Assembly: GCA_963771885.1 (NCBI GenBank)
Contig: CAVYVF010000001.1
Coordinates: forward strand, 1-64,000
DNA: 64,000 nucleotides
Direction of reading: 5' to 3'
Source of the DNA: Candidatus Bathyarchaeota archaeon
Lineage (GTDB): Archaea; Thermoproteota; Bathyarchaeia; TCS64
Both the position numbers and the translations under genes were made by a program. A model generated the notes under the pieces. It saw nothing but the letters and a program-made list of their open reading frames with translations. It did no database searches and had not been told where the DNA came from. Positions 123-60,397 of this stretch are shown piece by piece; the first letter of the stretch is position 1, and every line of letters starts with the position of its first letter.

Positions 123-132
123 CGCGCGCGCG
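123..132. repeat. Intergenic (CG)5 tract
   Basis: cgcgcgcgcg downstream of the stop at 180. Confidence 0.85.
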
Positions 133-179
133 AGGATTCAAGCGATGTGTGTAGATAAGAGTATTGAGTGAAAGTAAAG

Positions 180-714
180 TCAAGACGCCAACAATGATTT
201 CTTCCTATCTATGACCACATGCTCACCCTTCTCATCCAAAGCCATCACAAGCTGAAGAGAACCCGCATCAAACATCCCAGCAAACACCCTAACCACACCA
301 CCAGCCCTCGCCTTCACACCCACCCCATCAGGACAGGCCAACAAGCACAGAATCATAAGAACCCAACCTATCCAAAAACCCCTGATCAGACCAAGCAGGA
401 TTACCCATCAACGCGGCCACATCCTTATCCGCGGTCCACATACACCAGCCATCATTGAACTCAACACCCGCCTTGATCTTCCTCCCCTCAAGCAGCTTCC
501 TAAGCCTCTCAGCCTCGGCCATAATCGCGTTAGGCATCAACGACTTCTTACCCGTCCCCTCCTCCGTGACGACATCATAGACAGGCACAGAGCGATGATG
601 TGCGATAGCCATATTGGCGCAGCTCATACACCCGGTGATGAGGGTGCTCTTCGAGTCTTTGAGCAGCTCCATTATCTTCGTGTCAGGCAAAGTTACAGGA
701 TATTTAACAATAAG
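180..714 (-). CDS. Cys-motif protein resembling the N-terminal region of MetV/MTHFR-associated proteins; frameshift near 340
   Basis: ORF 328..690 (ITGCMSCA...GWCM...YDSVLV) continues after a 1-nt shift as LACPDGVGVKARAGGVVRVFAGMFDAG to a stop at 180. Pattern GCxxC...C...DxVLVLAC. Start codon uncertain. Confidence 0.5.
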
Positions 715-846
715 TTAACGTTGAAGAAACAAGTACAAATGATTTACGCGAGCGACTTTCAAGATTAGACTTTCAACACTACACGGTTGGGTTAGACTCT
801 AACCTTCTCCTGATTCGCAATACCAAAACTCATCTTCCTAACAATA

Positions 847-1080
847 TCAGGATACCTTCTCCATAAACCGGCTCATCAACTTATCAGACAAGAACTGGAA
901 ATCAGAAAGACAATCCCTAGACCACTCCAACTCCCGATACCTCTCAACAATGGGCTTAAACTTCGTCCAAGTATTAACAATCATATACGCCGTAGAGTCA
1001 TCAATCGCATCTAGATCGATGACTCCCGTCCTGTACTGCTGCTCTATAGAGTTGAAGGATGACATTACTGCGGCTCTCTT
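847..1080 (-). pseudogene. C-terminal fragment of a DUF4760-like archaeal multicopy protein
   Basis: NKRAAVMSSFNSI...GVIDLDAI...WTKFKPIVERYR...FQFLSDKLM aligns by eye with the C-terminal half of 1149..1701; no N-terminal TM half upstream. Confidence 0.5.
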
Positions 1081-1148
1081 GTTGTATGTTTTGTGTGTGC
1101 AATAACCTTATCCTAACTGGCACCCGACTCTAAATCAGGTGTAGTTTG

Positions 1149-1701: not shown

Positions 1702-1929
1702 GAAGAAAGGGTAGCAACGTCGAGGCACATAGACTGTGTTGCTATTATATGCGCGAATAATCGTTGAATATGCCCCTCTCTCGCAAGTTTCAATATCAAA
1801 GGCTCGACGTCTGCATATTAAACACGTATAGGCGTGATAAGCACTGAAGACTATCGCAAAGGATTAATCGTCTTCTTACTGTCAGACAACCAGAGTATAA
1901 AGGACCAAATAAAAACATACGCACTACTT

Positions 1930-2251: not shown

Positions 2252-3112
2252 ATGAGAAATATGAAAATCAATCATAGTTTATTAGCGTTAGCAACTATTT
2301 TGATAATAGGGCAGCAACTAGTGGGTAGCGCATACGCCATCAAAAACGGCGCTCCGGATCAGGAGGAACATCCATACGTATGCTGGATTGCGACGTGGGA
2401 TGGAACTTCCGACTTCATCTACCTCGGTACAGGATCACTAATTACCTCAACAACCGTATTGACCGCTGGGCACATCACGCAGCCACCTGGAGATATCGCA
2501 TTCGCGTGGGTAAATAACGAACCAGAAGCGCAATGGATCGTAGAGAATAATAAAATTCTTGAATCGGAGAAGATAATCGCACTCGGGTGGCACAAAGTCC
2601 TAGCTTGGGAAGCTCATCCAGATTACAGAGCTGTCGGTGAAAAGGGAATAACCGATTGGATAACCCACGATGTCGGAATACTTACTCTTGAAGAACCGAT
2701 TCTCTTAGATGAATATGCTAGTTTGCCAGAACCAGGCTTCGTGGATACGTTACCTAAGAAGCAGGGAGTGGATATTGTGGGGTATGGTGTCCAGGTTCAG
2801 GTGAGGGGCCAGGGTATACCTCCGCCGGGGAATTGGGGCTTTATAAACTTTGGATATCGCTATGGCGCTATTGCCCAGCTGGTAGGGGGCAATGACGTGA
2901 TAAGTGATGAGTTCATGAGGTTGAGTGCTAACCCTGCAAAGGGGAAGGGTGGTACCGCCTTTGGTGATTCCGGTGGCCCTATCCTGCTTGCTGGGACGGA
3001 TACTGTTCTAGGGGTTTGCTCGTGGGGGACTAATAGCAACTTAGCGGGTATCTCGTATGAGCAGCGAATAGATACTGCGGATATACTCGATTGGATAAAA
3101 CACTTTTATTAA
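2252..3112 (+). CDS. Secreted chymotrypsin/trypsin-fold (S1) serine protease
   Basis: Signal peptide ending AYA followed by IKNG; catalytic triad motifs LTAGH, HDVGIL, GDSGGP; SWG. Confidence 0.93.
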   Translation: MRNMKINHSLLALATILIIGQQLVGSAYAIKNGAPDQEEHPYVCWIATWDGTSDFIYLGTGSLITSTTVLTAGHITQPPGDIAFAWVNNEPEAQWIVENNKILESEKIIALGWHKVLAWEAHPDYRAVGEKGITDWITHDVGILTLEEPILLDEYASLPEPGFVDTLPKKQGVDIVGYGVQVQVRGQGIPPPGNWGFINFGYRYGAIAQLVGGNDVISDEFMRLSANPAKGKGGTAFGDSGGPILLAGTDTVLGVCSWGTNSNLAGISYEQRIDTADILDWIKHFY

Positions 3113-3205
3113 AAGCAAGTAAATTGAATAAAATTACGCACGCTCGGGCGATTCGAATTATTCGTGTGCGCGCTCAAAAATTATATCGTTGAATAAATTT
3201 GAGGA

Positions 3206-3495: not shown

Positions 3496-3521
3496 GCGCG
3501 CGCGCCAATTTCCGAGCGCGT
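3496..3521. repeat. Paired intergenic (GC)n tracts
   Basis: gcgcgcgcgc...gcgcgt in an AT-rich spacer. Confidence 0.85.
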
Positions 3522-3567: not shown

Positions 3568-4017
3568 TTATACGTAATTGATTTTTATTTCTCGACTGGT
3601 ATTAACATCAAAGCCCATACTGATGTCTAGTTTTCCCTCGACCTTGTAATTCTTAGATGGTGGGGAGTTATCCTTGGTTATAGATTTCCATAATCCGCCT
3701 ATTGGGTTGAACGGGGCACCACGGGACGGAGCTAGTAAGCTGAATTGGTAGGTCATGAGTTGACCAGCTGGGTATTCCTTCTCAACGTCCAGGGGGGCCC
3801 TGCTCCACGTGTGTGTATAATTCGTAGTGGTGGACTTTCCCTTCGAGTTTCGTCCCGTCTTTGTCTCTGTACTGGTTAGCTCAACGAAGACACCTTTGCT
3901 CTTCATAGGTTTGTCTAGTAGGAGGGTGACTGTGCCCGTTATCGTCTCGCCTGGGGCGTACACAGTCTTAGGTATCTCAACTTCAATCTTAGTCAAATCG
4001 TTAATTATTTGACTCAT
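3568..4017 (-). CDS. Single-domain arrestin-N / Spo0M-like beta-sandwich protein
   Basis: IEVEIPKTVYAPGETITGTVTL...KGVFVELT...YPAGQLMTYQFSLLAP...YKVEGKLDISMGFD follows the arrestin_N/Spo0M pattern; no signal peptide. Confidence 0.75.
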   Translation of the reverse strand: MSQIINDLTKIEVEIPKTVYAPGETITGTVTLLLDKPMKSKGVFVELTSTETKTGRNSKGKSTTTNYTHTWSRAPLDVEKEYPAGQLMTYQFSLLAPSRGAPFNPIGGLWKSITKDNSPPSKNYKVEGKLDISMGFDVNTSREIKINYV

Positions 4018-4133
4018 TTTATATTAAACATTTTATCGTTACGCTTGTATTGATTTTTTCCGGGTAAGAATCGCTTCAAATAAGATGGGGCTAATGCCGA
4101 GCGCGCAATCGCGCGTGCGTTTTCTGCCTTTAC

Positions 4134-4988
4134 TTATGGCATGAACACAAGGAAGATCGCCGTGTTCATCAACAGCATTATTATGCTGTGTTTAAGACCA
4201 GGCCAGATGGTGCCAGAGCTTAGCTTCGCCGCGATCAGCCCACCGAAGGCCGCCTCCATGATTGCTAGGTCATAGAGCAGAATCTTTAGCTGCTCCTTGG
4301 TAACAGCGACCTTGAGAATAGGACTCTGTATATCAAGCAGCTGCTGCAGACTTCCATATAGCATAATCATCATGGCCAGGAACACGATCAGCGTAGTGTA
4401 TATTATCGTAAGATAGGGCCGCATCTCCTCATTCCTGTCGTCTCGCGCCTCAAGCATCTTCCTAAGGAAGTCGGCGGTGGAGAGGAATGTCGTCTTCAGG
4501 TCTCCACCTAACTCTATTGAGGAGAGCAGCAGAGCCGTGGTTTTCTGGGCCATATCGGTTCCCATGCGATCCGAGAACTTTACGAATGCCTGGTCAAGAG
4601 GGACACCCCAACTCATCTGACTGACTAGTATTTTTAGCTCTCTCGTTATCCAGCCGTAGTCCTTCTTTGCGGCCTCTTCAATCGCCTCGATGAGAGTCAT
4701 CCCACTCATCATCCCCTCCGAAATCTCCTCGAGCACCCTTGGCAGAGCTTTATCGATTTCGTTTTTCCTTACGTCCTGGAGTATCATGATGAATGCGGGA
4801 AGTATCATAGCGACTACTAACCCAATAGCTATGAACATATGGGACTGATACTGATTAATTGTATTTGATAGGAAAAGTAGGTATCCAAAGCCGCCTACTC
4901 CAATACCTGCTAAAATGGATAAGCCTATGGCTACGGCCTTTAGCTTCTTGTTGAAGATTATATCGTTATTAATCGGTATTTTTACCAA
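4134..4988 (-). CDS. Type II secretion system F / TadC-like pilus platform membrane protein
   Basis: EIDKALPRVLEEISEGMMSGMTLIEAI...SWGVPLDQAF...ELGGDL; multiple TM helices; in operon with the ATPase. Confidence 0.9.
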   Translation of the reverse strand: MVKIPINNDIIFNKKLKAVAIGLSILAGIGVGGFGYLLFLSNTINQYQSHMFIAIGLVVAMILPAFIMILQDVRKNEIDKALPRVLEEISEGMMSGMTLIEAIEEAAKKDYGWITRELKILVSQMSWGVPLDQAFVKFSDRMGTDMAQKTTALLLSSIELGGDLKTTFLSTADFLRKMLEARDDRNEEMRPYLTIIYTTLIVFLAMMIMLYGSLQQLLDIQSPILKVAVTKEQLKILLYDLAIMEAAFGGLIAAKLSSGTIWPGLKHSIIMLLMNTAIFLVFMP

Positions 4989-5872
4989 TTCTGAGTCATC
5001 CCATCAATTAATAGTATAACCCCAATTGCTGCTACAGGGAAAATCGCATAAGTCATGAGCTGCATAAGCTGTACAGGTGAAAGCCCTCCACCGACCTCAC
5101 CCCCGAATATTCCCATCAACGAAAGTAGTACGACTAGTATGACAGGGAAGGCAATGCCAAGGGTGATGTATATCTCAGCAGCCATGTTTAGTTTATTCAC
5201 GATGTCCACAAGTTCCCTGCGCCTTACTTCTTGCTCGTGCTTCGCGGTCTCCTCGAGGTAAGTTTTAAGGTCTCCACCCGACTTTGTGATGCCCAGCAGT
5301 CCGTTCAGTAGCTTGAAGTATTTTTTAGAGGGCGTCCTCTTCGTCTCAGCCTCTATCGCAGATATTACGTCCTTCCCAAGCATGCTGATGTCACGGACGA
5401 TTGAGCGGGCACTCTGCCTTATCCCGTAGGTATCCTGGTTCTCGGCGAATGAGTTGAACACATCCTCGGTCATTACCCCGGCGCCAGCAAGCACACTCAT
5501 GTAATTGATTATATACACCATGTTCTTGTCTAGCTTCGCCTTTATCCCATCGGCTACCGACATGGGGTAATAGAGGAAACTAATTAGCGTAACAACGCCA
5601 ACGATCAACGGCGAAGCGAGTACGGTCATGAAATGGTCGGTCATGTTGAACATGGGTAGCACAATGAATGCAGCCGGTGTACTGATTAGGGCAGTAGCTA
5701 CGACGGCTATTACCGTCCAGAAGGTCATGCTACTGATGTAAACGACATGACTCATCCTGAGGCCTGCTCGGTCAAGTTGCTGCTTCACAAAGTCGTTCAG
5801 CGGCAACTTCCTCGAAGGCAGGTCGCCGAAGACGCGGTAGCCGATGCTATGGAGGTTATTGATCCTCTTCAA
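4982..5872 (-). CDS. Type II secretion system F / TadB-TadC-like pilus platform membrane protein
   Basis: INYMSVLAGAG...LGKDVISAI...TPSKKY...KSGGDLKTYL; TM helices; overlaps both neighbours. Confidence 0.9.
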   Translation of the reverse strand: MKRINNLHSIGYRVFGDLPSRKLPLNDFVKQQLDRAGLRMSHVVYISSMTFWTVIAVVATALISTPAAFIVLPMFNMTDHFMTVLASPLIVGVVTLISFLYYPMSVADGIKAKLDKNMVYIINYMSVLAGAGVMTEDVFNSFAENQDTYGIRQSARSIVRDISMLGKDVISAIEAETKRTPSKKYFKLLNGLLGITKSGGDLKTYLEETAKHEQEVRRRELVDIVNKLNMAAEIYITLGIAFPVILVVLLSLMGIFGGEVGGGLSPVQLMQLMTYAIFPVAAIGVILLIDGMTQNW

Positions 5873-7524
5873 CTACTACATCTTCCTCCTTCATCAGACT
5901 GTCCCTAGCGTTCTCCGGGGTACTCATGTATTCCCTGAGTACCTGCGTCACTTCGCCATAGCTCCTCTTGCTGTGGTTAACGAGGTAGGCGAGCATCTCT
6001 GCCCTCGCGTCTATGTCAGCTTGAGCCTGCTCTAGGGTGATGCCCTTCATAATAGCGGCCTTCCTAAGGTAGTGGCTCTGATGGGGCATCTCCCAGCTAT
6101 CGGTCTTCGGGTCCCAATCGAACAGACTCTGAACCTGAATCTCGTTGTCGTCGCCCAACCCCTGCACCTCAGCGGCGGATATGATTCTGCGCCCTGGGCG
6201 TCCATTGATTTCGCGGCGAGCCATGATGACGATCATGTTTAAGCCGGATATCATCATGCGGGGGATGTTCATCGGCTCCGTCTCGAGTCTACGTAGAGCG
6301 GAGTTGACCGACTCGGCGTGAAGCGTTGCTAGACCGAGGTGGCCGGTCGACATAGCCTGGAAGAGCGTGTACGCTTCCTCTCCACGTATCTCACCTACGA
6401 GGATGTAATCAGGGCGTTGACGCATAGCTGCCTTGAGTAGGTCGAATAGGTTGATGCCCTCCGTCGAACCCGTGCCTGGCCTCGTTACTGCCCTAATCCA
6501 GTTCTGGTGGTGCAGTTGAACCTCGGGCGTATCCTCAATGGTGATTATCTTAGCGTCGGGGGCGATGAAGGTGGCTAGGCCGTTAAGCATCGTCGTCTTG
6601 CCAGAGGCTACTCCTCCGCAGCAGAAGATGCTGATCTTGTTCTCCACAAGATACCAGAATAGCCCAGCCATCTTTGCCGAGATCGTGTGGTTCTTGATCA
6701 GGTCGACTATCGTCAAGGGATCAGCCTTGAACTTACGTATCGTGAAGGTGCTGCCCTGCTTAGTAGCATACTTGCCATATGTCATCTGGGCTCGACTGCC
6801 GTCGGGCAGCGCTGCGTCTAGGAGGGGGTTGGCGACACTGATCATCCTCTTTGACTTGTACGCTAGCCTGATGACGTAGGAGTCGAGCTGCGTCTCATCG
6901 TTAAATATAATGCTAGTTGGGATTGACTCGTGGACCCTGTGCCAGATGTAGATCGGTATGTGAGGCCCGTTACAGCTAACGTCCTCGATTAGTGGATCCT
7001 TCATCATGATGTCTATCTTGTCGAAGTCGAGGTAGTCGCGGGTAAGATAATACATCAGTTTTTCCTTCTGGAAATCCTGAAGATTTAGCTTGTGTATCTT
7101 TTCCGCGTCACTAAGGCCATTCTTTAGTGACTCAATTGCCTTATCCCGACTACCCAACTCGGTTAGGGTCGTATCAATTGTTGAAGTGAAATAGTCTCTA
7201 ACGAGCTTGAGCGCTTTTAGTTCAACCTCTGATAATGTTGGCTCAATCGCATCATATTTTGTCTGTTTAGTAATCGGGTTCGTAGAAATTACAGCGTAAA
7301 CTTTCCCATCAACGATTGGATAAATATTCTTTAAAGTAATTCTATCAGGGATGTAAGCGCGCACAGGTGTAAAATCGAAGATTTTACTCTGTGTATTTTT
7401 TTGATCGTCAAGTACCTTCTGAAGTTCTTCTTGGAAAGCCTGAACGACCTCGGGCTTTCCCTTGAACGGGAGCCATTTCAGCCTTGTCTTTTTTAGCCTC
7501 GGTTATTACCTGTTGTTTGTCCAT
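5856..7524 (-). CDS. Archaeal type IV pilus assembly ATPase (PilB/FlaI/VirB11 family); frameshift in an A6 run near 7490
   Basis: Walker A GGVASGKTT, TIEDTPE, RQRPDYILVGEIRGEEA, TGH...TLHA. The frame stays open upstream of 7364 (KTRLKWLPFKGKPE...) and joins ATG 7524 after a 1-nt shift. Confidence 0.93.
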
Positions 7525-10813: not shown

Positions 10814-10994
10814 ATGATTTGTGCGCGCGTAAGTGTTTAGCGATTACGTGTCTAGGCCTTTTCTAGACTCTTATCTCGAGGACGGGACTACAACCGAGTG
10901 AGGCACATATCCCAACGCCTCGAAAAAGTGTATCTAGGAAAGACATACTAGAGGTTAAATGAAATAATCCTGGATTTCCTATGAGAGGATAGTT

Positions 10995-14847: not shown

Positions 14848-15353
14848 TCTAAAAACACTGGAGTGAAGATGCCTTGAAATGTCCAAGTTGTGGTCAAAAG
14901 ATGTCACCTGATAAAGCCGTAGAGCTAAGATGGTTCTGCACATCATGCCACGCCCAACATGATATACGATTCATCGACGACGGACATAGAACAAAGTTCT
15001 CAAAAGTCGCTGAAAAAAGGCGCATCGCATCCATGATTTTTTGATTCCTGTAAGTATATAATACACTCATGTGTGGGCGCGCGTAATGCATTCATCATTT
15101 TCATTCTGCCGAGTATTGTCACTCATATAGTGGTCCAGGAAAAAACGACCAGCTTAAGCTCCACCTAGGGTAAAATAAGCCAAAATTGTGTAATAACCGA
15201 GCTTAATGAAAATACCTAGTACAAAAACCTAAGGAATGGGCTCTTAAAAGCGTCAACAAATTGAAGGTGGTTGACAATTCCTTAAGTCGCGAGCGACACA
15301 AAAATGGTCCCATTAGCGCTTATACTTTTTAACTAATGGATCGAAAAATTAGA

Positions 15354-18344: not shown

Positions 18345-18424
18345 TCAAAAATTAGCGCACGGCGTTGCTCTGTATCTCATCCACATAAGTCGACATGCGA
18401 GTGAGATTGAGTGCGCACGATGTT

Positions 18425-18799: not shown

Positions 18800-18898
18800 A
18801 ACGAGTATCGGAATCAGTTACGGACGCTCGTTATAAACCGGTTATGGAGCAATGATATGTATCATAGTTCGATGCGCACGTGAAGCCTTGAAAAAATA

Positions 18899-21800: not shown

Positions 21801-21980
21801 TATACACTCATATTTTTGCTCATGCAGGATCGTGAGTGCGTCTACCGGATTCAGTATAATGTCTGCTGAGATCGAGTTGTCCGCGTTCTCGATGTTTAAC
21901 TTCGTTAGCTCGATTTGGCTTGGGTCGTCGTCGATGAGGAGGACGCGTATTCGATCCTGCATATCAAATGAAAGGAACAC
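18899..21980 (-). CDS. Soluble hybrid sensor kinase: receiver, about 5 PAS domains, HisKA, HATPase; frameshift near 21250
   Basis: REC (LIDDD, SDFQMP, TGRG, YIRK); repeated PAS ends (DVTERK, QDITDRK, QDVTE, RDIT, RDVTER); AHDLRGPL, NLVRNAVEAM, DTGVGI, GFGLGL. Joins ORFs 21195..21980 and 18899..21325. Confidence 0.9.
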
Positions 21981-22098
21981 CGAAATATATCAATTAGTGA
22001 ATTTAGGAAATGCTTCATACACCAACACAATTACCCGATAGTGATGAATACCCCAGATATTTTATAATCACACTAACTCTACTCTACTCGATATTCTG

Positions 22099-23177: not shown

Positions 23178-23437
23178 ATTGACGCCTCGAATAAGAGTGC
23201 TCCAATGCACGAACGCTTTGGTAATGGCATTTGATTCTCCCAGCCGAAGCCATTTACAAGCCTGAAAAGCGCGCATGCGTCGCGCAATGAAGTTGATCGA
23301 GCCAGGTCTATTGGCTAGAATAGTAAGGGGTGGCACGCACATGTCGTATCCCACTAGCTGAAGTAAAGATCAAAATGGAATACCTAAACCCACAACTGTT
23401 CTCATTAAATGGGAAGGTATCCCTAAATTTTTCGTGC

Positions 23438-23989: not shown

Positions 23990-24273
23990 GAATGGGTTTA
24001 GATATCCACTCTTAAAAACCCTTGATACGTGCGGTGGATTTGAGTTTCCTGCAACGCATATCATGGTTTACACGTTTGTGCCTTTACAAGTCTGTATATC
24101 GATACTGGGAGAATAGATATCCATAATTCTAGTAATCCGCACGCGAAATCAAATTCCAAAGGCGCGCGCGGGAGTTGGGGAAGATTAAGCGGGGACGTGA
24201 CCCGGAATATTGGGCGTTAAAGGTAATTTTGGATGATGATGAGTCGGTTAAGATGTAGCGTTTCACTAGCCTT

Positions 24274-25143: not shown

Positions 25144-25435
25144 GAAGGGTCAATTATTGATTGTGAAACATGTGTTTAAAGAAATTTTCTCTTAAAGATT
25201 ATCCGATTGTTTGTTAGGCAGTAGTTAAGATGCGCATTATTAGGATAGTTAATCTTATCATCACTTCCACCTGATAATTAGCACGCGCGATCAGGATTGT
25301 TTTTGAACTTATTTTAAATTTGGTTTATCTTCGAAAGTTATGAATATCATTGGTTTCGGTTGGGCAATTAAAAAAACGATCAACGTGGAGAAGAGTGTCG
25401 TTTCCCCCTAACGCTCGCGCCGTTCATGCGAGTAG

Positions 25436-29049: not shown

Positions 29050-29089
29050 ACACGCGCGCGAGGAAAAGAGTGAAGGGGTATGCGCGCGC
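29050..29089. repeat. Paired intergenic (CG)n tracts
   Basis: acacgcgcgcg and tatgcgcgcgc, just after the fadD stop. Confidence 0.85.
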
Positions 29090-30757: not shown

Positions 30758-30774
30758 TACGCGCGCGCATACAC
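30758..30774. repeat. 17-nt alternating purine-pyrimidine tract in a divergent spacer
   Basis: tacgcgcgcgcatacac. Confidence 0.85.
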
Positions 30775-32765: not shown

Positions 32766-32925
32766 TCAAAGTTTATTCGCTAGATCAGACGCATGCGCAC
32801 GCACAGCCTATAAGAGGATTCTCGACAACCTATCTGAATACTTCTCACAGGACCCTCGTTAATCAAAGGGCGTGCATACTCACTAGTCTTTTCCATGCCT
32901 AAACAGACTTTAATCACAATTACCC

Positions 32926-34249: not shown

Positions 34250-34495
34250 TATTCACGACGGCACCCAAGACAGGAAATAATACAGGTACCGCCAAGACTA
34301 GCTTCAGTGTAAAATGATGCGCGCCAATTAACTTTGGATTTAAATCTCTCAAAATTAATGTGAGATGTCATAAGTTAGTTTAATACACGTTCGACATCGC
34401 GTGCGTAACGATCTTAACTGGGTAGTCGCGCGCATCATCCCCGCACTCGCTAAGCCATTATAAGTCTCATATGACACACTAAATTACTGACGGCC

Positions 34496-35267: not shown

Positions 35268-35278
35268 CGCGCGCGCGT
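35268..35278. repeat. Intergenic (CG)5 tract
   Basis: cgcgcgcgcgt. Confidence 0.85.
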
Positions 35279-35349
35279 TCGTAACGTATTCATGCACTAC
35301 AACCCTTTTAATGCGCAAAAGTTCATAATATGAGAAGGAGGCCTAAAAA

Positions 35350-35556: not shown

Positions 35557-35718
35557 ACACAATTCTCTCGTCGCTCCCCCTTAGGAAGCGAAACCCTATA
35601 CGAGACCAACAAATATGTTGGCGTGCAATATTGAATTACACCAGTGCGATTTCTAACGCGCGCATGACATTGGAACGCCTAAGACAATCTCCCCAACCTT
35701 ACCAATGCAATCGACTCT

Positions 35719-35925: not shown

Positions 35926-36063
35926 CCATGTCCAAACCCCTTTTTGACCTTTACGGATTTAACCATTAAATCCGCGCACACTTAAGGAGGGCAGAGCGCG
36001 AAGAATCCTCGTAAACGTCTTAGACATGCAGCTGCGCCAACTCCTACGCAATCCAAACCCAAT

Positions 36064-36666: not shown

Positions 36667-36694
36667 TATTTACGCGTTAAAGAGTCGGCGTGCG

Positions 36695-39537: not shown

Positions 39538-39751
39538 CGGGCTATTCTTTCTAGTGTTAAGGTGCTTATTGCATTATTGGAGGGCACGTAATGAACGTAC
39601 ACAGCGTCGAATGCACCTAGCGGCGTGCACGTACATAGAGGTAGACATCCACGAGCGTCCTAACCAGTACCAGAATAACTAGGAAACCCATATTCCCCCG
39701 CGCGCGACTCTAGCGAGTGCGTTAGTAGGGACCCAATAGCAAACATACGAG

Positions 39752-45468: not shown

Positions 45469-45779
45469 ACTCTAACCCTCAAATTATCTATAATATTCAC
45501 GTGCGCACGAGTGTGGAAAAACAGAATTTTTCTGGAAATATATAAAAAAAAATAGCGCGCGCAAAATCAAGTCAGGCTTTACAGAACAGATAAGCAGGAC
45601 GCATTTCAAGTTCTTCAAGTCCCTAGGATTGCCTCTCGAGAAGATTAACGGAGTATTCTGCGGGGGTGGCTTGGATCAACTGGAACTAGTTCACGCGATT
45701 ATCGAATAACTTTCGGATACGTACTTGCGCACGCATGAGCTCATCCTGTTGTAAGGATTGACATTCTTTAAAAAAAATG

Positions 45780-47636: not shown

Positions 47637-47839
47637 GAGTAATCTTAGTAAAACATTTTATATGAACTTATAGTTTCTATCTCATATCATAAGAGCTAGG
47701 AATAACTATCCTCTAGCCTTCCTCTTAGCTTTCCCAATCTCTTCATGAGCCGTTCCTTACGCTGTGCGCGATGATAATTTTATAGTGATTTTACGCGAAA
47801 ATTGCGTGTATGACCTCATTCACGTGGGCGACAGATTGA

Positions 47840-48736: not shown

Positions 48737-48849
48737 AGATTATAATTCACCGCGCGGTATACATCTAAAAAGCATGCATGACTGCTGCGCTCTAGAAGCG
48801 ATCGAATAAATAAACGAAGCCCCATCATCGTTGTATCTGCTTTCTACGT

Positions 48850-49979: not shown

Positions 49980-50232
49980 GCCCCCACTAGCTACATAAAT
50001 AATATAACATTATCGTATGCGTAAACCTGTGAGCCAGACGGCTTCAACGTCAGAATGACAGAATTCGACCATAGGTCCACCCCGGTAAAAGGTTGAACTC
50101 TCGAAACAAGGCCACAAATAGAGGTGGGGGACGTGAGGTCGACCCAAGCGCGCATAATAGTGCTACGCTTGCAATTCCATGAGAATAAATCCGCATAGAA
50201 AGCAGCTTAATACATAGAAACAAAGTGGAAGG

Positions 50233-51582
50233 ATGATATTGAGCTTGAACGAGGCAAGGACTCGTCTGCTAAAAAAGGGTAAGTCAACTACAGGTCCAGT
50301 AGTTTACTGGATGAGTAGAGACCAGCGCGTCGAGGATAACTGGGCTCTTATCTATGCACAGCAAATAGCGCATGGAACCAGTCAACAGTTATACATAGTT
50401 TTCTGCATTAGCCCAAACTTCCTGAATGCCTCACGGTGGCAATACGAGTTCATGATCGAAGGCTTACGATTAGTTGAACAACAGTCAGCCGCTCTGCAAA
50501 TCCCATTTATACTATTAATCGGCGAACCATCAAGGGAAATACCTAAACTCGTTGAATCGATAGGAGCATCAGCGCTGGTAACAGACTTCGATCCTTTAAG
50601 AACGAAAAAAAATTGGAAACAGGGAGTAGTTGAGGAAATCCAGATTCCCATTTATGAGGTCGACTCACATAATATAGTTCCCTGTTGGGTTGCATCAACG
50701 AAACAAGAATACGCGGCCTATACGTTGAGGCCGAAGATAAACAGGCTTCTACATGTTTACCTTGAGGAATTCCCAACTCCAAAAAAAATGCCGTATAAGG
50801 TGAAGGAGAGGGGTGATGCCTCTAACTGGGATAAGGCTCTTGAACTAATCCCTGAGGACGCCAACAAACCTTCTACTTTACAAAAGTCAGGGTCAGAGAA
50901 CGCGAAGAGAAGCCTACAGAGAATTCATAACCAATAGACTTACCGGCTACTCAGAGGCTCGAAACGATCCTAATTTGGATGGCCAATCAAGGCTCTCACC
51001 ATATCTTCACTTCGGACAAATATCCGCCCAGAGGGTCGCATTGGAGGTAAAAGCTAGTTCTTCAGCCATGATCGATAAAGATGCGTACCTTGAAGAACTC
51101 ATCGTTAGGAAGGAGCTCTCAGATAATTTTCTAAATTACAACGATCATTATGACACTTTTCATTGCCTCCCAGCTTGGTCTAAGAGAACTCTGGACGAGC
51201 ATAGGTGGGACCGAAGAGAATACACTTATAAATTAGCTGAGTTTGAGCGAGCTGAGACCCACGATGAGTTATGGAACGCAGCTCAGAGACAAATGCTCAG
51301 AACAGGAACGATGCATGGCTACATGAGGATGTACTGGGCTAAGAAGATCCTTGAGTGGTCAGCTAGTCCAGAAGAAGCCTTCGAGGCCGCATTAGCCTTA
51401 ACGATAGATATGAGCTCGACGGAAGGGATCCCAATGGCTACGCAGGCATCGCTTGGAGTCTGGGTGGTCTTCATGATAGGGCGTGGGGTGAGAGGCCAAT
51501 TTTTGGAAAGATAAGGTACATGAGCTATAAGGGATGCAGATCAAAATTTGATGTAGATAGATACATAAGAAAATTTAGTTAG
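50233..51582 (+). CDS. phrB: Class II CPD (deoxyribodipyrimidine) photolyase; frameshifts near 50918 and 51397
   Basis: [64 protein letters not shown]; shifted frame gives DGRDPNGY...HDRAW...GKIRYM. Confidence 0.93.
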
Positions 51583-51601: not shown

Positions 51602-51664
51602 ACGCGTTTTTCTGAATTAGGTAGCGCGTACACTAGGTCTCGCGTGTATTATTATACGCGCGCG
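51602..51664. repeat. Cluster of four CGCG-core tracts between convergent genes
   Basis: acgcgt, gcgcgtacac, cgcgtgtat, tatacgcgcgcg. Confidence 0.8.
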
Positions 51665-52515
51665 GCGGGAGCCGTTATTGTAAGCAAATCCTCACCTAAG
51701 ACAACTTCACCAGTGAAGTCCCGCCTGACCTCCACAACCATCCTATCAAGTAGTTCACGGGGCTTCTCCCTAATGTGGGTGAGGACCAGCTTGGAAACCC
51801 GGGCGTAACATGCCAGTTTCCCGACCTCGAGAGAACTCAAGACGTGCTTCGAGATAAGCTTGGTATCGAAGTCGTTAACCTCCTCCCCAGAATAATAGCA
51901 TCCCGCCACCATGATATCGGCGCCTCTAGAAAAATCGATAAGTTCTTCGCTGATGACCGCGTCACCCGTGATCACGGTACTCACTCCACCCTCTGAGACC
52001 CGGATTGCATGGCAAGGCCACTCATGCCTACTCAAGCCAAGCCCGTGACCGTGGTTAACATCACACACGTCCACCCTCCAACCGCCTTTAGAGATAACCT
52101 GCCCAGCCACAACATCATGCACCTTAACCATGTCACGTATATCGACCAGCCTCTCCGTGGTTAACGCCGTCTCCTGAAGCCTATACCAGATATCCCTCTC
52201 ATGGGCATCCAGTAGACTCTTAACCATCGCAGAGGTACCCGCCGGCCCATAGACGTTTATAACCCTGTTCGTAGCCAGGTTCCAGCTGCTAAAAAGAAGG
52301 TCAGCCAACCCCGAGGTATGATCAAAGTGAAGATGGGTCAAAAATACATCACTGAATTCGGTCACCTTGACACCGGCTTGAACCAACTGAGTGGAGACAC
52401 CACGCCCAGCGTCAACAATCAGGTTTCCCGAGTCGAGCCTCACCAAAACTGAAGGCCCCATCCTGTTGGGGTCAGGTCTAGGCCCACCTGTCCCAAGGAG
52501 AGTGATCCTCATCAA
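51652..52515 (-). CDS. MBL-fold metallohydrolase, RNase Z/BN-like
   Basis: LLGTGG, VDAG, THLHFDH, TGD, LVLTH. Confidence 0.9.
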   Translation of the reverse strand: MMRITLLGTGGPRPDPNRMGPSVLVRLDSGNLIVDAGRGVSTQLVQAGVKVTEFSDVFLTHLHFDHTSGLADLLFSSWNLATNRVINVYGPAGTSAMVKSLLDAHERDIWYRLQETALTTERLVDIRDMVKVHDVVAGQVISKGGWRVDVCDVNHGHGLGLSRHEWPCHAIRVSEGGVSTVITGDAVISEELIDFSRGADIMVAGCYYSGEEVNDFDTKLISKHVLSSLEVGKLACYARVSKLVLTHIREKPRELLDRMVVEVRRDFTGEVVLGEDLLTITAPAARV

Positions 52516-52778
52516 ATACTCCTCGTCGTCCCACCTAATAACTCGCGCATGAATTTCGGTTAGACCCCGCGCGCTCCTGCGCGTATTCTTACGCTTTGGA
52601 TAGTCTAATTACAATGACAGAACCATTTTGAGGAACGAACCGACAACGCATACGCGCATATCCAACATCGGGTTTAATCATTAGGGTAAACTAGTTGCAT
52701 TAACTATTTTCTTCGAATCACAAGTCCGAAAGAGTCGCCCCAACTCCTTTTAAATAATTATTAACCATATACCTCACA

Positions 52779-57085: not shown

Positions 57086-58489
57086 ATGAGTGAGCTCCGC
57101 GTAGCCCAGTCAAGCGTCGTCTTAGGTGATCCCCATATTTGTAGCGACTCAAGAACGAGGCTTAGTCTCCAAGCCGCCATCTATGAACCATTGGTTGGCC
57201 GTATAGGGCCAGGTCGATTCACTCCTCAGCTTGCAGAAGCGTGGGAAACTCGGGATGGGCGAGTTTGGGAGTTTCTTCTACGAGATGAGATAAAAGCGCA
57301 CAACGGTGCCTCATTCGAGGCGGATGACGCTGTCGCCAACTTGATGAGCATCATCGATCCAAAGGTTGGAGGGGCATTCGGAACCGAGGGCGTCTACGCA
57401 AGCTATCTTGGTAAAGCTGCCTTCACCGCAGTGGGGCGGCTTCGACTAAAAATTTCCCTCCCTGAGCCAATGGCTGATTTACTGGAGCTACTGGTGGAGA
57501 TGCCGATGCTGCCGGAGAATGTGATGGATGATCTGCCTGACACACACGTCGGGACTGGAAGATATTTGATCAGAGACGTGAGCAAAGAGAACGTAATCCT
57601 TGAGCGCAACCCCTACTATTGGGGCTCCAAACCAAAATATGAAAAACTACACTGGGCGGGTATCGGTGGGGAAGCGGATAGACTGAGTCTCGTTAAGAAG
57701 GGGGAGGCCGACATCGCTTCGGGTCTCAGCAGGAGGGGGATAAAGGAAGCTCATCGAATTGGGGTAAGTACAGTTTCTCAGCCAGGTTATCTATCAGTGA
57801 TCTTCATGTTCAACTGCGCATCTGAGCCCTTTAGCAACGTGAAAATTCGCCGAGCCCTCAACTATGCCACTGACGTTGGGGAGATCATCAGGGATGTGAT
57901 GCATGGATCGGCGGACGGCCTGAACGGGCCATTTACGCCCCACCATTTTGGATACAACTCCGAAACAAGACCATACACCTACGACCCTGCAGAAACGAAG
58001 AGACTGCTCCGCGAAGCTGAGCGATCCGACCTCTCCGTAACAATGGATGTGCCAAGCGTCATGCCGGATGAATCCGTCGAGCTATCACGGGTAATTGCGA
58101 AGCAGTGGGGGGAAGTCGGGGTCAGCGTGACGACGAGGGTGCATGAGCACCGTGAACAGTACAGCCACATGGTTCGTGACAAAAAAATTGGTGATATTTG
58201 CTGCTTCGACTCAAGCCCGATGAGTTCATTCAGGGTGCTTAGGGAAAAGATCCACGGCGGGTTGAAGGGTCCCTGGTGGGAGGGCTACGAGAACCCGCGT
58301 GTGGACTCCCTAATAGATGAGGCCCAAGCAACGGTGAACGATGAGGCTAGGAGAAAAATCTATAGAAACGCGTACCAAATGATACGAGACGACGCGCCGT
58401 GGGTTTTCCTCTACAGCCCTCGACTACATTTTGCTTTGAAGGGTGTGGATTGGAAGCCAAGCTGGGAGGGAGTAGTTAGAATCGAATGA
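57086..58489 (+). CDS. Family-5 (peptide/nickel) ABC substrate-binding protein lacking signal peptide and anchor
   Basis: IYEPLV...PQLAEAWE...FLLRD...HNG, GTGRY, LERNPYYWG, VKIRRALNYA, DDAPWVFL. Confidence 0.85.
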   Translation: MSELRVAQSSVVLGDPHICSDSRTRLSLQAAIYEPLVGRIGPGRFTPQLAEAWETRDGRVWEFLLRDEIKAHNGASFEADDAVANLMSIIDPKVGGAFGTEGVYASYLGKAAFTAVGRLRLKISLPEPMADLLELLVEMPMLPENVMDDLPDTHVGTGRYLIRDVSKENVILERNPYYWGSKPKYEKLHWAGIGGEADRLSLVKKGEADIASGLSRRGIKEAHRIGVSTVSQPGYLSVIFMFNCASEPFSNVKIRRALNYATDVGEIIRDVMHGSADGLNGPFTPHHFGYNSETRPYTYDPAETKRLLREAERSDLSVTMDVPSVMPDESVELSRVIAKQWGEVGVSVTTRVHEHREQYSHMVRDKKIGDICCFDSSPMSSFRVLREKIHGGLKGPWWEGYENPRVDSLIDEAQATVNDEARRKIYRNAYQMIRDDAPWVFLYSPRLHFALKGVDWKPSWEGVVRIE

Positions 58490-58644
58490 TTCTTTTCTAG
58501 TGCCGCGCGTCTTCGCCAATACCCACCTTATTCCCCATCTAACGTACGTGACGCATGCCGATGTGAAATCCGGAAGATTACATGTAAAAAAGGGGATAGG
58601 CTTGTCGTTCCACAAGTTAAGAAAAAGGGAGAGGGAGACTCAGA

Positions 58645-58842
58645 CTAGTCGGGGGTTTTCCTGATCACACGCAAGACCCTGTTAGCGTTATTCACGCCTC
58701 TGCGGTCACCTCGAGAGAGGTATCTAATATATTGCCTCCAAAGTATCTCGTCTCGGTTAACCGCATACCTGCTCTCGAGCAGTTCCTCAGGAAACCCAGC
58801 CGTCCTCCCTGGGTTTATTGGCTCTTCGAGTTCAGCTATCAT
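58645..58842 (-). CDS. Small hypothetical protein
   Basis: 65-aa ATG ORF in an otherwise empty gap. Confidence 0.4.
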   Translation of the reverse strand: MIAELEEPINPGRTAGFPEELLESRYAVNRDEILWRQYIRYLSRGDRRGVNNANRVLRVIRKTPD

Positions 58843-59211
58843 ATAATTTCAACTTCTTTAGGTCTGAAGGTTCTCCCTTCAGCATTTATTTCAGAATTAA
58901 TTAACCAATATAAAGGAAACGGACAATTATTTCTAACTCCTCGTAATGCCCTCAAACATCGATATGGTCAGTTATGCTGACCTCGCGGACAGGTAGTCAA
59001 GCGCGCGTTAGGCAGTTTGGTTTCCTCTCAGCAGACCTGTACATTCGCTGGAGTGATGAGAGAGAAGCCCCATGGCAACGCCTCCGCCTAGCCGAGATCC
59101 AGAGGGGGCTAATTTGCCGGAACATCGCGTAAACATGCGAGACGCGCAACGGATCCGTGGGATTCACCTTACTTACTCATCTTTTATCCCCCTGACTCCC
59201 AGTGCTAAGCA

Positions 59212-60330
59212 ATGTCTGACTCGAAAACGAAGCCGAGGGCGAGAGACCTGGGCATCCCGCTCCAAGGTAGAACGGGGAAATACAACGCCATAACTGACGT
59301 TCAAGGCGTAACTGTGGGCCACGAAACCATCATCGCCGGCGAAGGCAAGCTCGAGGTAGGCATAGGCCCCATAAGAACAGGCGTAACAGCCATACTCCCC
59401 AGAGCCGACCACAGCGACCCCGTCTTCGCCGCCTGGTCCTGCCTGAACGGAAACGGCGAGATGACGGGAACCACATGGGTGGATGAATCAGGCTTCCTTA
59501 GCGGCCCCATATTGATAACAAACACCCACAGTGTCGGAGTCGTCCACGACTCGGTCATTGAGTGGTCGCAGAGAACCCGAAAATCTAGGGTCGGCAACCC
59601 CTGGTCTCTGCCAGTAGTAGCCGAAACCTACGACGGCTTCCTGAACGACATAAACGGCTTCCACGTCCGAAGGGACCACGTTTTCAAAGCCCTCAACAAC
59701 GCCTCTGGAGGCCCAGTTGAGGAGGGAAACGTCGGCGGCGGTACGGGTATGATCTGCCACAAGTTCAAGGGGGGAATCGGCACATCATCACGAACTCTAC
59801 GCTTGGCAGACTCAGACTATGTGGTTGGGGCGCTAGTTCAGGCAAACTACGGGCTCCGTGAGCAACTAACAATCTCAGGAGTCCCAGTAGGCCAAGAGAT
59901 CCCCGACCTCTTGCCCGTGGAGAATGGGCAAACACCTCGAGACGGCGAACAGGGATCCATCATAGTAGTGATTGCCACCGACGCGCCTCTTCTCCCACAC
60001 CAGCTTCGCAGGCTAGCCAAGCGCGCGCCAATGGGCATCGCGAGGGTCGGGGGAATTGGCGGCAACGGTTCCGGCGACATATTTGTCGCGTTCTCCACCG
60101 CAAATCCACACGTGATGAGTGATAAGGAGGTGAAGACAGTTCAGATGCTCCCTAACGAGTTGATGACTGACCTCTTCCAGGCTACAGTCCAGGTAGTGGA
60201 GGAAGCTATCTTGAACGCCCTCGTCGCCGCGAGAACAATGACGGGCATAGATGGCAACACGGTCTACGCGATTCCCCATGAGCGACTCAGAGAAGTGCTT
60301 AGAAAATTCAATCGTCTAGCCAAAGAATAG
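59212..60330 (+). CDS. dmpA: DmpA / P1 (S58) family aminopeptidase
   Basis: RARDLGI, NAITDV, NGNGEMTG, EEGNVGGGTGM, GSIIVVIATDAPL (autoprocessing G|S), GSGDIF. Confidence 0.93.
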   Translation: MSDSKTKPRARDLGIPLQGRTGKYNAITDVQGVTVGHETIIAGEGKLEVGIGPIRTGVTAILPRADHSDPVFAAWSCLNGNGEMTGTTWVDESGFLSGPILITNTHSVGVVHDSVIEWSQRTRKSRVGNPWSLPVVAETYDGFLNDINGFHVRRDHVFKALNNASGGPVEEGNVGGGTGMICHKFKGGIGTSSRTLRLADSDYVVGALVQANYGLREQLTISGVPVGQEIPDLLPVENGQTPRDGEQGSIIVVIATDAPLLPHQLRRLAKRAPMGIARVGGIGGNGSGDIFVAFSTANPHVMSDKEVKTVQMLPNELMTDLFQATVQVVEEAILNALVAARTMTGIDGNTVYAIPHERLREVLRKFNRLAKE

Positions 60331-60397
60331 ATACGAATCTACCAAGCCTCAGCGCGCGCAGGTGACTGACATTAGTTTTATTAAAAAATGGAGTAAA

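Follow-up and report, generated by a model that had tools for sequence, protein, structure and literature searches.

The filler or N-nucleotides left by end joining (Ku/LigD NHEJ, terminal transferase) are either random or copied from nearby DNA. REP/BIME elements are imperfect palindromes of 20–40 nt with conserved heads that are mobilised by RAYT transposases, and the REP elements found at bacterial gene ends bind gyrase. The cyanobacterial highly iterated palindrome HIP1 (GCGATCGC) is also plentiful in coding DNA, and the mobile GC clusters of yeast mitochondria are structured elements of 30–40 nt that form families and have flanking target sites.

The alternating CG tracts described here, for which a literature search found no previous description, share features with each of these systems. 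As with NHEJ filler, a short stretch of additional DNA occupies the exact point where non-contiguous sequences meet, flanking DNA often being lost, and the host genome has a Ku/LigD/primase-polymerase operon; the tracts differ in being one fixed alternating dinucleotide of 7–10 nt, in that Ku does not follow them within the family, and in that some pre-exist in the intact allele. Z-DNA and other non-B fragile sequences likewise alternate CG or CA/TG and have rearrangement endpoints at the tract, but the tracts here are enriched 17–72-fold between genes, are very short for a B-to-Z transition and are kept at the joint. They resemble REP/BIME as extragenic palindromes favouring gene 3' ends and convergent spacers, yet consist of 7–10 nt of pure CG with no flanking motif and no Y1 transposase. 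Like HIP1, a lineage-specific 8-nt palindrome tops the over-represented words of a genome compartment (here the intergenic one), although the tracts are depleted in coding DNA (observed/expected 0.36–0.66) and no C5 methyltransferase was found. In common with the yeast mitochondrial clusters they are GC-only palindromic islands in AT-rich intergenic DNA tied to recombination and rearrangement, but each is a bare dinucleotide run. The available part of one preprint describes DRT3b, a bacterial defence reverse transcriptase, as carrying out protein-templated synthesis of poly-(dCdA) without a nucleic-acid template, the products self-annealing and not being joined into the genome (bioRxiv 10.64898/2026.05.04.722794). 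As described there, DRT3b demonstrates that strict dinucleotide alternation can be the product of an enzyme; it makes CA whereas the tracts are CG, and a reverse transcriptase was found in only one of 41 genomes here.

Tracts in the window and across the genome

The window is a 64-kb stretch from a metagenome-assembled genome (MAG) of an uncultured archaeon of the Bathyarchaeia, a bin that is 92% complete with 6.66% contamination and in which strain mixing is possible, so that some "paralogous" contigs may represent two strains. At all 34 places listed in the original prediction an alternating C/G run of at least 4 nt lies within 14 nt; 25 have a pure CG run of at least 6 nt, and the remaining nine are purine-pyrimidine alternations of 6–17 nt with a CG core (e.g. 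32789–32805). According to gene calls from our own crude hexamer caller, in which start codons are especially approximate, 33 of the 34 are intergenic. The tracts of the window, listed without strand, are as follows.

123..132, CGCGCGCGCG, 10 nt, intergenic, 195 nt past the stop of gene 328-690(-)
1746..1755, purine-pyrimidine run of 10 nt, CG core of 5 nt
3168..3173, GCGCGC in an 11-nt purine-pyrimidine run, convergent spacer, 55 nt past the stop of 2321-3112(+)
3496..3505, GCGCGCGCGC, 10 nt, same convergent spacer as 3168..3173, 62 nt past the stop of 3568-4017(-)
4101..4115, GCGCGC and CGCGCG with 3 nt between, 18-27 nt past the stop of 4134-4988(-)
10823..10829, GCGCGCG, 7 nt, 9 nt past the stop of 10097-10813(+)
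15077..15083, GCGCGCG, convergent spacer
18411..18419, purine-pyrimidine run of 9 nt, TGCGCACG type
18872..18882, purine-pyrimidine run of 11 nt
23269..23280, GCGCGC in a 12-nt purine-pyrimidine run, convergent spacer, 91 nt past the stop of 22842-23177(+)
24162..24170, GCGCGCGCG, 9 nt, tandem spacer
25284..25289, CGCGCG, tandem spacer
29053..29060, CGCGCGCG, first member of a pair 3' of the AMP-ligase gene
29082..29089, GCGCGCGC, second member of that pair, 3' of the AMP-ligase gene
30760..30768, CGCGCGCGC in a 17-nt purine-pyrimidine run, at the right-hand end of 920 nt deleted in other strains
32789..32805, purine-pyrimidine run of 17 nt, 24 nt past a stop codon
34319..34324, GCGCGC, 69 nt past the stop of 33947-34249(+)
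34427..34433, CGCGCGC
35268..35277, CGCGCGCGCG, 10 nt, 20 nt past the stop of 34972-35247(+)
35657..35663, CGCGCGC
39699..39706, CGCGCGCG, 45 nt past the stop of MFS gene 39752-40966(-)
45498..45509, purine-pyrimidine run of 12 nt
45555..45562, GCGCGCGC, convergent spacer
45726..45737, purine-pyrimidine run of 12 nt
47763..47770, purine-pyrimidine run of 8 nt, CG core of 5 nt
48751..48756, CGCGCG, convergent spacer, 14 nt past the stop of 47840-48736(+)
50148..50153, GCGCGC, divergent spacer
51657..51664, CGCGCGCG, within the final codons of called gene 51652-52512(-)
52568..52574, CGCGCGC, 55 nt upstream of the start of 51652-52512(-)
52646..52661, purine-pyrimidine run of 16 nt
58504..58509, CGCGCG, 14 nt past the stop of 57086-58489(+)
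59001..59007, GCGCGCG
60021..60028, GCGCGCGC within the peptidase S58 gene, one of the seven runs of at least 6 nt in called genes
60352..60359, GCGCGCGC, convergent spacer, with the two stop codons 21 nt and 38 nt away

The whole window contains 32 runs of at least 6 nt, 25 of them intergenic and seven within called genes, against 14.9 expected (maximum 26 in 100 first-order Markov simulations). For the intergenic DNA of the window (14,314 nt, 42% GC) the corresponding simulations, 300 in number, gave 3.5 expected runs of at least 6 nt (maximum 9) where 24 were observed, and 0.22 of at least 8 nt (maximum 2) where nine were observed. The claim that tracts mark almost every spacer was overstated, with a run of at least 6 nt in 20 of the 54 spacers of 20 nt or more (7/12 convergent, 9/26 tandem and 4/16 divergent). 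Their reported presence between divergent genes is thus borne out, as is their position within 100 nt past a stop codon, which holds for 16 of the 25 intergenic runs (derived by hand from the coordinates). Pairing at 10–30 nt, also proposed, is above chance but weakly so genome-wide, where 79 spacers carry at least two tracts (65.3 ± 5.4 expected) and 10 tract-to-tract gaps measure 10–20 nt (5.6 expected).

Genome-wide, 8-letter alternating-CG windows were compared with expectation by compartment and contig GC. In intergenic DNA 102 were observed against 1.4 expected on low-GC contigs and 153 against 9.0 on high-GC contigs, which is the 17–72-fold excess given above; coding DNA falls below expectation (3 against 4.5 and 64 against 175.5, respectively). 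None of the other dinucleotide repeats (AT, AC, AG, CT, GT) is comparably enriched, all being at or below 3.9 times expectation. The enriched intergenic words all alternate purine and pyrimidine, with abundant transition variants of the CG tracts among them, and no motif was found beside the tracts. Oligo-T ranks second among the enriched intergenic 8-mers and peaks past stop codons, which indicates that ordinary archaeal terminators are present in this genome. Run lengths are bimodal, with 167 runs of 6 nt, 97 of 7, 87 of 8, 47 of 9, 23 of 10, none of 11–14 and one of 15, giving a second peak at 7–10 nt.

Runs of at least 6 nt occur in 292 of 1,922 spacers. Tracts are carried by 52 of 244 convergent spacers, by 85 of 1,172 in tandem and by 43 of 473 between divergent genes; convergent spacers are the densest in tracts (9.2 per 10 kb) and divergent ones the sparsest (3.6 per 10 kb), the reverse of what the suggested Z-DNA sink for transcription-driven negative supercoils would predict. 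When the stops of 2,657 genes were scanned from -35 to +200 nt, 45 of 200 tract occurrences started within 25 nt past the stop; tracts are scarce within 40 nt upstream of starts.

Tracts at homology breakpoints, strain joints and gene stumps

Tracts are found where homology breaks off abruptly, at structural-variant joints that distinguish strains, and where gene stumps have been cut. Within the assembly, 22 of 124 internal alignment ends (at least 85% identity) have a tract no more than 5 nt away, whereas compartment-matched random positions gave 2.4 ± 1.6. Past 29 of these breakpoint ends the following 120 nt show 48–60% identity, the level of random pairs (median 54%), and the ends are therefore true breakpoints. 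In independent metagenome contigs 7 of 66 homology ends lie within 5 nt of a tract (0.8 ± 0.9 expected), and 10 of 175 truncated gene ends in spacers lie within 10 nt of one (2.6 ± 1.6 when positions are drawn at random from the spacer concerned). Among 100 breakpoint pairs, 71 have no tract, 24 have a tract in one partner and five in both; most rearrangements thus proceed without tract involvement. Most tracts, in turn, could not be linked to an event because no close relative was available for their spacer.

When other metagenomes were compared with window positions 27000–36900, five of the 10 joints listed ended at a tract or no more than 1 nt from it (29058, 29081, 30760 twice and 32789). 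One contig of run X1 lacks 77 nt, with 29058 joined to 29136 and the deletion beginning inside tract 29053..29060, and in a contig of run X2 positions 29082–29137 are swapped for 12 letters, again with a CG tract among them. The stump of gene 29786-30043(-), cut at 29839–29840, abuts 30760 in contigs of runs X1 and X3, two runs from different studies. A contig of run X3 diverges from the window at 32789, and joints in runs X1 and X3 end 18–22 nt beyond tract 34427..34433. At 35268 there is a loose end, a run X1 contig being unlike the window from there on and the alignment of a run X4 contig stopping there. Pre-existing tracts serve again as joint points.

Contig C10 has a 10-nt (GC)5 in place of 2,078 bp with two genes in C20, and a 19-codon stump of one of these genes remains in C10. 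A tract-bounded cassette with a zinc-ribbon gene (132 aa) occurs in two different contexts (C5 and C6), its empty site carrying one tract, and a cassette with a 514-aa gene is present in three copies with a tract at the start of each.

At one orthologous gene end (tract 32789 in the window) a tract is present in 7 of 78 loci, at varying distances and with unrelated flanks, indicating that tracts arise repeatedly and are not inherited. Among 45 tracts inside alignments of homologous pairs, none was missing from the partner as a clean insertion, two absences were pieces of larger indels, and 34 tracts were identical between copies 80–99.7% alike; in one pair the tract differed by a 2-nt length change and a transition. 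Substitution was lower in tracts than in flanking intergenic DNA (3.6% vs 8.3% and 1.8% vs 4.8%, from small samples of ∼170 positions each with every pair counted twice), which hints at constraint, unlike a pure scar.

A break-and-rejoin reading and its rivals

The position of tracts at breakpoints and truncated-gene ends points to DNA breakage and rejoining rather than to a regulatory cis-element. The cis-element of the original prediction holds as far as being genome-wide, non-random and lineage-specific, with intergenic enrichment over the null and tracts present in independent reads and related genomes; its suggested roles as an RNA hairpin, a supercoil sink or a methylation target are not supported. 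With a probability of roughly 55%, they are seams that remain where DNA was broken and rejoined and that can become joints again; in appearance they are traces of a break-and-rejoin route not described before, unlike gene-control signals. A self-complementary (CG)3.5–5 run, or a transition-decayed variant of it, would mark each joint at which a block, usually a whole gene plus its promoter, was deleted, inserted, duplicated or swapped. As (CG)n self-pairs in any register, it could act as a universal sticky end or microhomology. Such a tract may be written onto broken ends prior to ligation as filler, or may be a site prone to breakage at whose edge a second end is attached, and the two may operate side by side: the 24 pairs with a tract in one partner only fit filler, and the five with a tract in both, together with tract 30760 in the intact allele, fit reuse. 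Survivorship would set the placement, only joints that spare genes and promoters persisting, and from this would follow the peak 0–25 nt past stops, the scarcity before starts and the highest density in convergent spacers; a transcription role is not needed. The second length peak, with its absence of runs of 11–14 nt, fits an enzymatic or annealing length limit.

The same placement could reflect a functional DNA-level boundary element at the ends of transcription units, such as a protein or type II topoisomerase site or a Z-prone structure, with rearrangements as a by-product of breaks made at tracts. The crowding into convergent spacers and directly past stops, the lower substitution, the purely purine-pyrimidine character of the enriched words and the parallel with gyrase-binding REP elements at bacterial gene ends all suit this proposal, which nevertheless appears rather unlikely given that only 292 of 1,922 spacers carry a run, orthologous positions are unconserved, some same-genus genomes have next to no tracts and a flanking motif is absent; a Z-alpha search also gave no match, as did its control, which matched nothing anywhere. 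That the tracts are transcription terminators or 3' RNA hairpins is very improbable. Stop-proximal tracts and convergent enrichment would be expected of them, but T5+ follows 14% of tract-bearing and 16% of other gene ends, six tract regions folded no better than dinucleotide shuffles (z values of -0.5 to +1.9), as seen for the tract pair 4101..4115, there were no Rfam matches and divergent spacers carry tracts too. The RNA hairpin offered in the original prediction thereby finds no support.

A neutral CG microsatellite, generated by polymerase slippage in unconstrained DNA with unstable runs above ∼10 nt being lost, would reduce the breakpoint link to fragility. The 2-nt length difference in one pair and the abundant transition variants are compatible with slippage, and Z-forming repeats provoke deletions in bacteria according to the available part of the preprint (bioRxiv 10.64898/2026.05.04.722794). 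It seems improbable, since no other dinucleotide is similarly enriched, even self-complementary (AT)n in AT-rich spacers, the bimodal lengths have no slippage tail and most tracts are identical between diverged copies. Ends or excision footprints of a mobile-element family, or sites of an integron-like cassette recombinase, would explain tract-bounded single-gene cassettes in different contexts, but these encode ordinary enzymes and no transposases. Across 3,236 tract pairs no enclosed terminal inverted repeats were found, and there was no sign of a multi-copy element (no stretch occurs three or more times), although this absence is not proof because MAG assembly can lose repeated elements. 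Searches for tyrosine or serine recombinases and Y1 or DDE transposases (PF00589, PF00239, PF01797, PF01609) gave no match, and TnpB (PF07282) matched below the cut-off only, leaving this origin distinctly improbable.

Joining enzymes and tract abundance among relatives

The suggestion of a methylation target found no support, as a search of the 92%-complete genome, covering the C5 class only, returned no C5 methyltransferase. CG enrichment recurs in some family relatives and not in the other Bathyarchaeia sampled, and some genomes of the same genus are almost tract-free. The Ku, LigD ligase-phosphoesterase and primase-polymerase operon of the host genome does not follow tract abundance in the family: Ku was not found in G021, which has 250 occurrences of GCGCGCGC, and is present in G001 and G010, where GCGCGCGC occurs once each.

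Alternating CG tracts in the genome and its relatives

The source assembly comprises 2.46 Mb in 23 contigs (C1–C23), the window being the opening 64 kb of C1, and the closest relatives of the proteins encoded in the window are found in Bathyarchaeia MAGs. The window contains 32 maximal runs of at least 6 nt in which C and G strictly alternate. A tract, either such a pure run or a purine-pyrimidine variant with a CG core, was present at all 34 coordinates listed in the original prediction; 25 of these hold a pure run of at least 6 nt, with the remaining nine being purine-pyrimidine runs of 6–17 nt with a CG core, and 33 of the 34 are intergenic according to the crude gene calls of a purpose-written hexamer log-odds caller. 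The 14.3 kb of intergenic DNA in the window (42% GC) includes 24 runs of at least 6 nt and nine of at least 8 nt, compared with 3.5 and 0.22, respectively, expected from a first-order Markov model. Tracts are common in spacers, as had been proposed, but their presence in almost every spacer was overstated, as a run of at least 6 nt is found in 20 of 54 (7/12 convergent, 9/26 tandem, and 4/16 divergent). One nominal spacer, at window 21287-22098, has protein-level similarity to several proteins of the same genome (E down to 2e-27), which identifies it as a pseudogene or an overlooked gene rather than real spacer DNA.

The contigs fall into two GC classes, 16 of 44–52% GC (349 kb, window included) and seven of 53–58%, and the bin may represent two strains or include a flexible low-GC compartment. 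The predicted intergenic enrichment over a composition null was borne out genome-wide, with 102 eight-letter windows of alternating CG observed versus 1.4 expected between genes of the low-GC contigs and 153 versus 9.0 in the high-GC contigs; the corresponding counts in coding DNA were 3 versus 4.5 and 64 versus 175.5 (observed/expected 0.66 and 0.36). As (AT)n, (AC)n, (AG)n, (CT)n, and (GT)n repeats reach at most 3.9 times expectation, the CG enrichment is not a product of general slippage. When all intergenic 8-mers were ranked without bias under a third-order model, the top three were, in order, GCGCGCGC (z = 33), T8 (z = 31), and CGCGCGCG (z = 29). Transition variants came next, among them TGCGCGCG, GCACGCGC, and CGCACGCG, all of which alternate purine and pyrimidine.

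The lengths of pure runs between genes decay geometrically up to 6 nt (7596, 1941, 523, and 167 runs of 3, 4, 5, and 6 nt, respectively), with a second population beyond (97, 87, 47, and 23 runs of 7, 8, 9, and 10 nt, none of 11–14 nt, and one of 15 nt). The same shape was observed in 645 kb of independent metagenome contigs (22, 18, 14, and 6 runs of 7–10 nt and none longer), in 60 kb of G016, a genome of the same genus, and in 400 kb of G021, from another genus of the family, which also has a few runs of 12 nt as judged from overlapping matches. The position-wise composition of 470 tract flanks revealed no extended motif, only a slight bias toward A following a final C.

Tracts also recur in independent data and in relatives, as the original prediction required of a real element. 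In addition to their presence in the metagenome contigs, their enrichment outside ORFs reaches 46-fold and 19-fold in two genomes of the genus, G016 and G013, respectively, and 28-fold in G021; G011, G012, and G014 are likewise tract-rich, and two further genomes of the genus, G001 (33% GC) and G010, hold one GCGCGCGC each. Other Bathyarchaeia loci (288 kb) showed no enrichment (12 observed versus 16 expected), and nor did G036, from another family (52% GC; 0 versus 0.5 expected outside ORFs and 1 versus 7.1 inside), and G037 and G039, also from outside the family, gave 0 versus 0–0.4 expected, a comparison with little power at low GC. The presence of (CG)5 in 19/24 family genomes versus 1/16 outside agrees with this pattern, although the tally has low power at low GC, takes this repeat in its other phase as the "control", and is not a clean test of absence. 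According to a survey of prokaryotes (PMC4060949), alternating CG and purine-pyrimidine runs are generally suppressed, a tendency that the tracts contradict and that makes the tract-bearing lineage an outlier.

Tracts at breakpoints and rearrangements

Same-genus genomes share only ∼65–85% DNA identity, in scattered pieces, so that spacers cannot be aligned across species. The genome itself holds contig sets that are 89–97% identical over kilobases (C2/C3, C5/C6, C10/C20, C17/C18, and C7/C8/C9), which may be duplicates or a second strain (bin contamination 6.66%). Among the internal alignment ends at ≥85% identity, 22/124 lie within 5 nt of a tract, compared with 2.4 ± 1.6 for compartment-matched random positions, and the sequences past these tract-associated ends are unrelated, their 48–60% identity being that of random pairs. 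An independent metagenome set, consisting of 80 loci around one orthologous gene, gave 7/66 ends within 5 nt of a tract versus 0.8 expected; when the first 400 kb of G021 were aligned to themselves, four alignment ends resulted, too few for a breakpoint test. Similarly, the truncated ends of gene fragments in spacers fall within 10 nt of a tract in 10/175 cases (2.6 ± 1.6 expected). Taken together, these data suggest, with a probability that we put at roughly 55%, that the tracts are seams at which DNA was broken and rejoined.

Individual events were resolved in the window by placing contigs from four public DNA runs on positions 27000-36900, in which the following features are relevant.

29786-30043: gene whose last 18 codons are fused to a tract in two runs
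30760-30768: tract, within a 17-nt purine-pyrimidine run
35268-35277: tract at which one loose end begins (at 35268)

Five of the ten joints listed for this region have an end at a tract or within 1 nt of it. The fusion of the last 18 codons of gene 29786-30043 directly to the tract at 30760 was seen in two runs from different studies and corresponds to a 920-nt deletion with its endpoint exactly at the tract edge. Elsewhere in the genome, a 10-nt (GC)5 in C10 replaces 2,078 bp containing two genes that are found in C20, reducing a pyridoxamine-oxidase-like gene to a 19-codon stump. Two families of single-gene cassettes occur in different contexts bounded by tracts: a 132-aa zinc-ribbon gene, which together with its upstream region is found in C5 and C6 with tracts on both sides and whose empty site has one tract, and a 514-aa hydrolase gene, present in three copies with a tract at the start of each.

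At the end of one orthologous gene, a tract is located within 70 nt in 7/78 loci, at varying distances and with unrelated flanks, which argues that tracts arise repeatedly. Of 45 tracts inside homologous alignments, 34 are identical, eight carry substitutions, one differs in length, and two are absent, both within larger indels; a clean insertion of a tract between homologous copies was seen for none of the 45.

A tract at a joint could have been written onto the broken ends before ligation, as in end-joining filler, or could be a break-prone site that is reused. Like filler, the tracts sit exactly at joints of non-contiguous sequences, but their absence from the unrearranged allele is mixed: among 100 distinct breakpoint pairs, a tract is missing from both partners in 71, confined to one partner in 24, and present in both in five. 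The one-sided pairs fit synthesis at the joint, as does the C10 (GC)5, for which no tract exists at either corresponding end point in C20. The two-sided pairs, the C5/C6 cassette with its one-tract empty site, and the tract at 30760, which is already present in the intact window allele, instead fit reuse of tracts as joint points or microhomology, and both processes may act. Homologous copies differ less within tracts than in flanking intergenic bases (3.6% versus 8.3% and 1.8% versus 4.8%, from small samples with pairs counted twice), which leaves room for a functional site, for instance one for a protein or topoisomerase, that is also recombinogenic.

Placement relative to genes and known systems

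Tracts of at least 7 nt are present genome-wide in 52/244 convergent, 85/1,172 tandem, and 43/473 divergent spacers, with densities of 9.2, 4.8, and 3.6 per 10 kb, respectively. Around the stops of 2,657 genes (−35 to +200 nt), 200 tract occurrences were counted, 45 of which start in the first 25 nt 3′ of the stop, where they peak; tracts are scarce within 40 nt upstream of called starts. If tracts are seams, a joint would persist only where the gene or promoter was spared; the accumulation 3′ of stops, the scarcity 5′ of starts, and the surplus in convergent spacers would follow because only such joints survive, the last also because convergent spacers lack promoters. Survivorship accounts for the placement whether the tracts are filler or reused break sites.

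The tract observation is real and strong, and the regulatory readings are not supported. A Z-DNA supercoil sink, one of the functions originally proposed, agrees with the alternating CG and purine-pyrimidine composition: runs of the latter kind of at least 12 nt number 235 versus ∼62 expected. As to length, on which a flip into the Z form at cellular supercoiling would depend, the pure CG runs measure 7–10 nt and the purine-pyrimidine runs up to 23 nt. Such a sink should be placed where negative supercoils build up, behind polymerases and at divergent promoters, but it is in divergent spacers that the tract density is lowest. A search for Z-alpha domains gave no match, and its control matched nothing either. 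The 3′ position would also suit a terminator or 3′ RNA hairpin; however, T5+ within 100 nt of the stop is no more frequent at the 72 tract-bearing gene ends (14%) than at 2,312 others (16%), and the folds of six tract regions are no better than those of shuffled sequence (z −0.5 to +1.9). Tract pairs, to which the original prediction had drawn attention, are only weakly enriched genome-wide, and a role as hairpin stems was rejected for this reason and because of these folds. A terminator confined to gene 3′ ends was rejected given the tracts in divergent spacers, and there was no Rfam match within the window; the 24 public runs returned for positions 27000-36900 included no RNA run. As for ordinary terminators, T8 ranks second in enrichment among intergenic 8-mers and T5+ runs peak 0–20 nt after stops, as is usual in archaea, with only 16% of genes having T5+ within 100 nt of the stop.

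Several known systems share features with the tracts. REP/BIME elements are likewise extragenic, 3′-biased palindromes, but they are imperfect palindromes of 20–40 nt with a conserved head or flanks and an associated RAYT, whereas the tracts are 7–10 nt long without a flank motif, and the Y1 (RAYT) transposase (PF01797) has no match in the 92%-complete genome (control matched in 6/14 genomes). HIP1-type repeats are over-represented in coding DNA as well, where the tracts are depleted, and the C5 class (PF00145) of the cognate methyltransferase has no match in this 92%-complete genome. The single-gene cassettes bounded by tracts (132 and 514 aa) resemble those of integrons; an integron, however, uses a tyrosine integrase and a structured attC of 57–141 nt, compared with a site of 7–10 nt here and no match to the tyrosine recombinase family (PF00589) in the 92%-complete genome, the control matching in 14/14 genomes. 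Transposon ends or footprints were rejected, as no inverted repeats were found inside any of 3,236 tract pairs and no element has three or more copies. Searches of the genome likewise gave no match for serine recombinases or the DDE_Tnp_1 transposase and none above cut-off for TnpB. Repeated elements may be missing from a MAG, and the lack of mobile elements and XerA is either a remarkable trait of the genome or the result of an assembly gap. An insertion of 552–556 bp at C7:118245-118802, seen when C7 is compared with C8 and C9, lies between direct repeats of ∼20 nt; it is devoid of a CG tract and may be a small non-autonomous element.

Candidate enzymes, implications, and further observations

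A complete NHEJ cluster is located at C23:379320-382859 (locus L179), encoding a LigD primase-polymerase (289 aa), Ku (323 aa), and an ATP-dependent ligase with a 3′-phosphoesterase domain; one paper (PMC7554672) describes the full Ku/LigD complex as extremely rare in archaea. Ku was found in 15/24 other genomes of the family and 0/16 outside it. Within the family, (CG)5 is present in 12/15 Ku-positive and 7/9 Ku-negative genomes, G021 has 250 GCGCGCGC with Ku not found, and the Ku-positive genomes G001 and G010 have a single copy each. Dependence of the tracts on Ku/LigD was consequently rejected, Ku being family-specific but unlinked to tracts within the family. A reverse transcriptase occurs in 1/41 genomes, and PolX was discarded as a tract-specific candidate, its palm domain being found in 33/41 genomes, tract-free lineages included. 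Additional PolX copies are encoded on C17 and C18.

A recent preprint (bioRxiv 10.64898/2026.05.04.722794) reports enzymatic synthesis of a strictly alternating dinucleotide through protein templating, making a CG-writing activity just conceivable. We regard as possible, but rather doubtful, a previously undescribed end-joining route of these Bathyarchaeia in which an enzyme, using no nucleic-acid template, writes a short alternating C/G tail on broken ends by protein templating or self-templated slippage. Such tails would be complementary in any register, so that any two ends could anneal and be ligated, leaving a (CG)n seam of 7–10 nt that could later serve as microhomology again. Were this route correct, single genes would be freely exchangeable modules and every rearrangement would be readable.

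If the tracts are seams, they flag sites at which DNA was once broken in an uncultured, globally abundant archaeal group, and gene loss, gain, and movement could be read at the grain of single transcription units. They would imply a repair or recombination activity beyond the machineries tested (Ku-LigD, reverse transcriptase, recombinases, and Y1/DDE transposases), and an enzyme that acts at (CG)n, by writing or by cutting, would be interesting both for its mechanism and for practical use. On a more modest reading, the tracts would be a fragile microsatellite specific to the lineage, and even this would be an unusual source of genome plasticity. No published description of the phenomenon was found in a literature search that covered few subscription journals.

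Several genes in the window are split or truncated, with no tract at the breaks.

42643-43533 and 43538-44797: NrdD (anaerobic ribonucleotide reductase), split
33001-33960 and 33947-34249: oxidoreductase in two overlapping ORFs
50245-50937: photolyase N-terminal domain, followed by a 179-aa ORF without a family match (region 50245-51514)

At one metagenome locus (L167:8323-8420), a tract after the orthologous stop is followed directly by a putative tRNA gene, as judged by eye. Finally, an arrestin-like domain protein (148 aa; window 3568-4017) and a trypsin-family protease (2321-3112) adjoin a type IV pilus-like cluster of ATPase and membrane-protein genes at 4134-7364.
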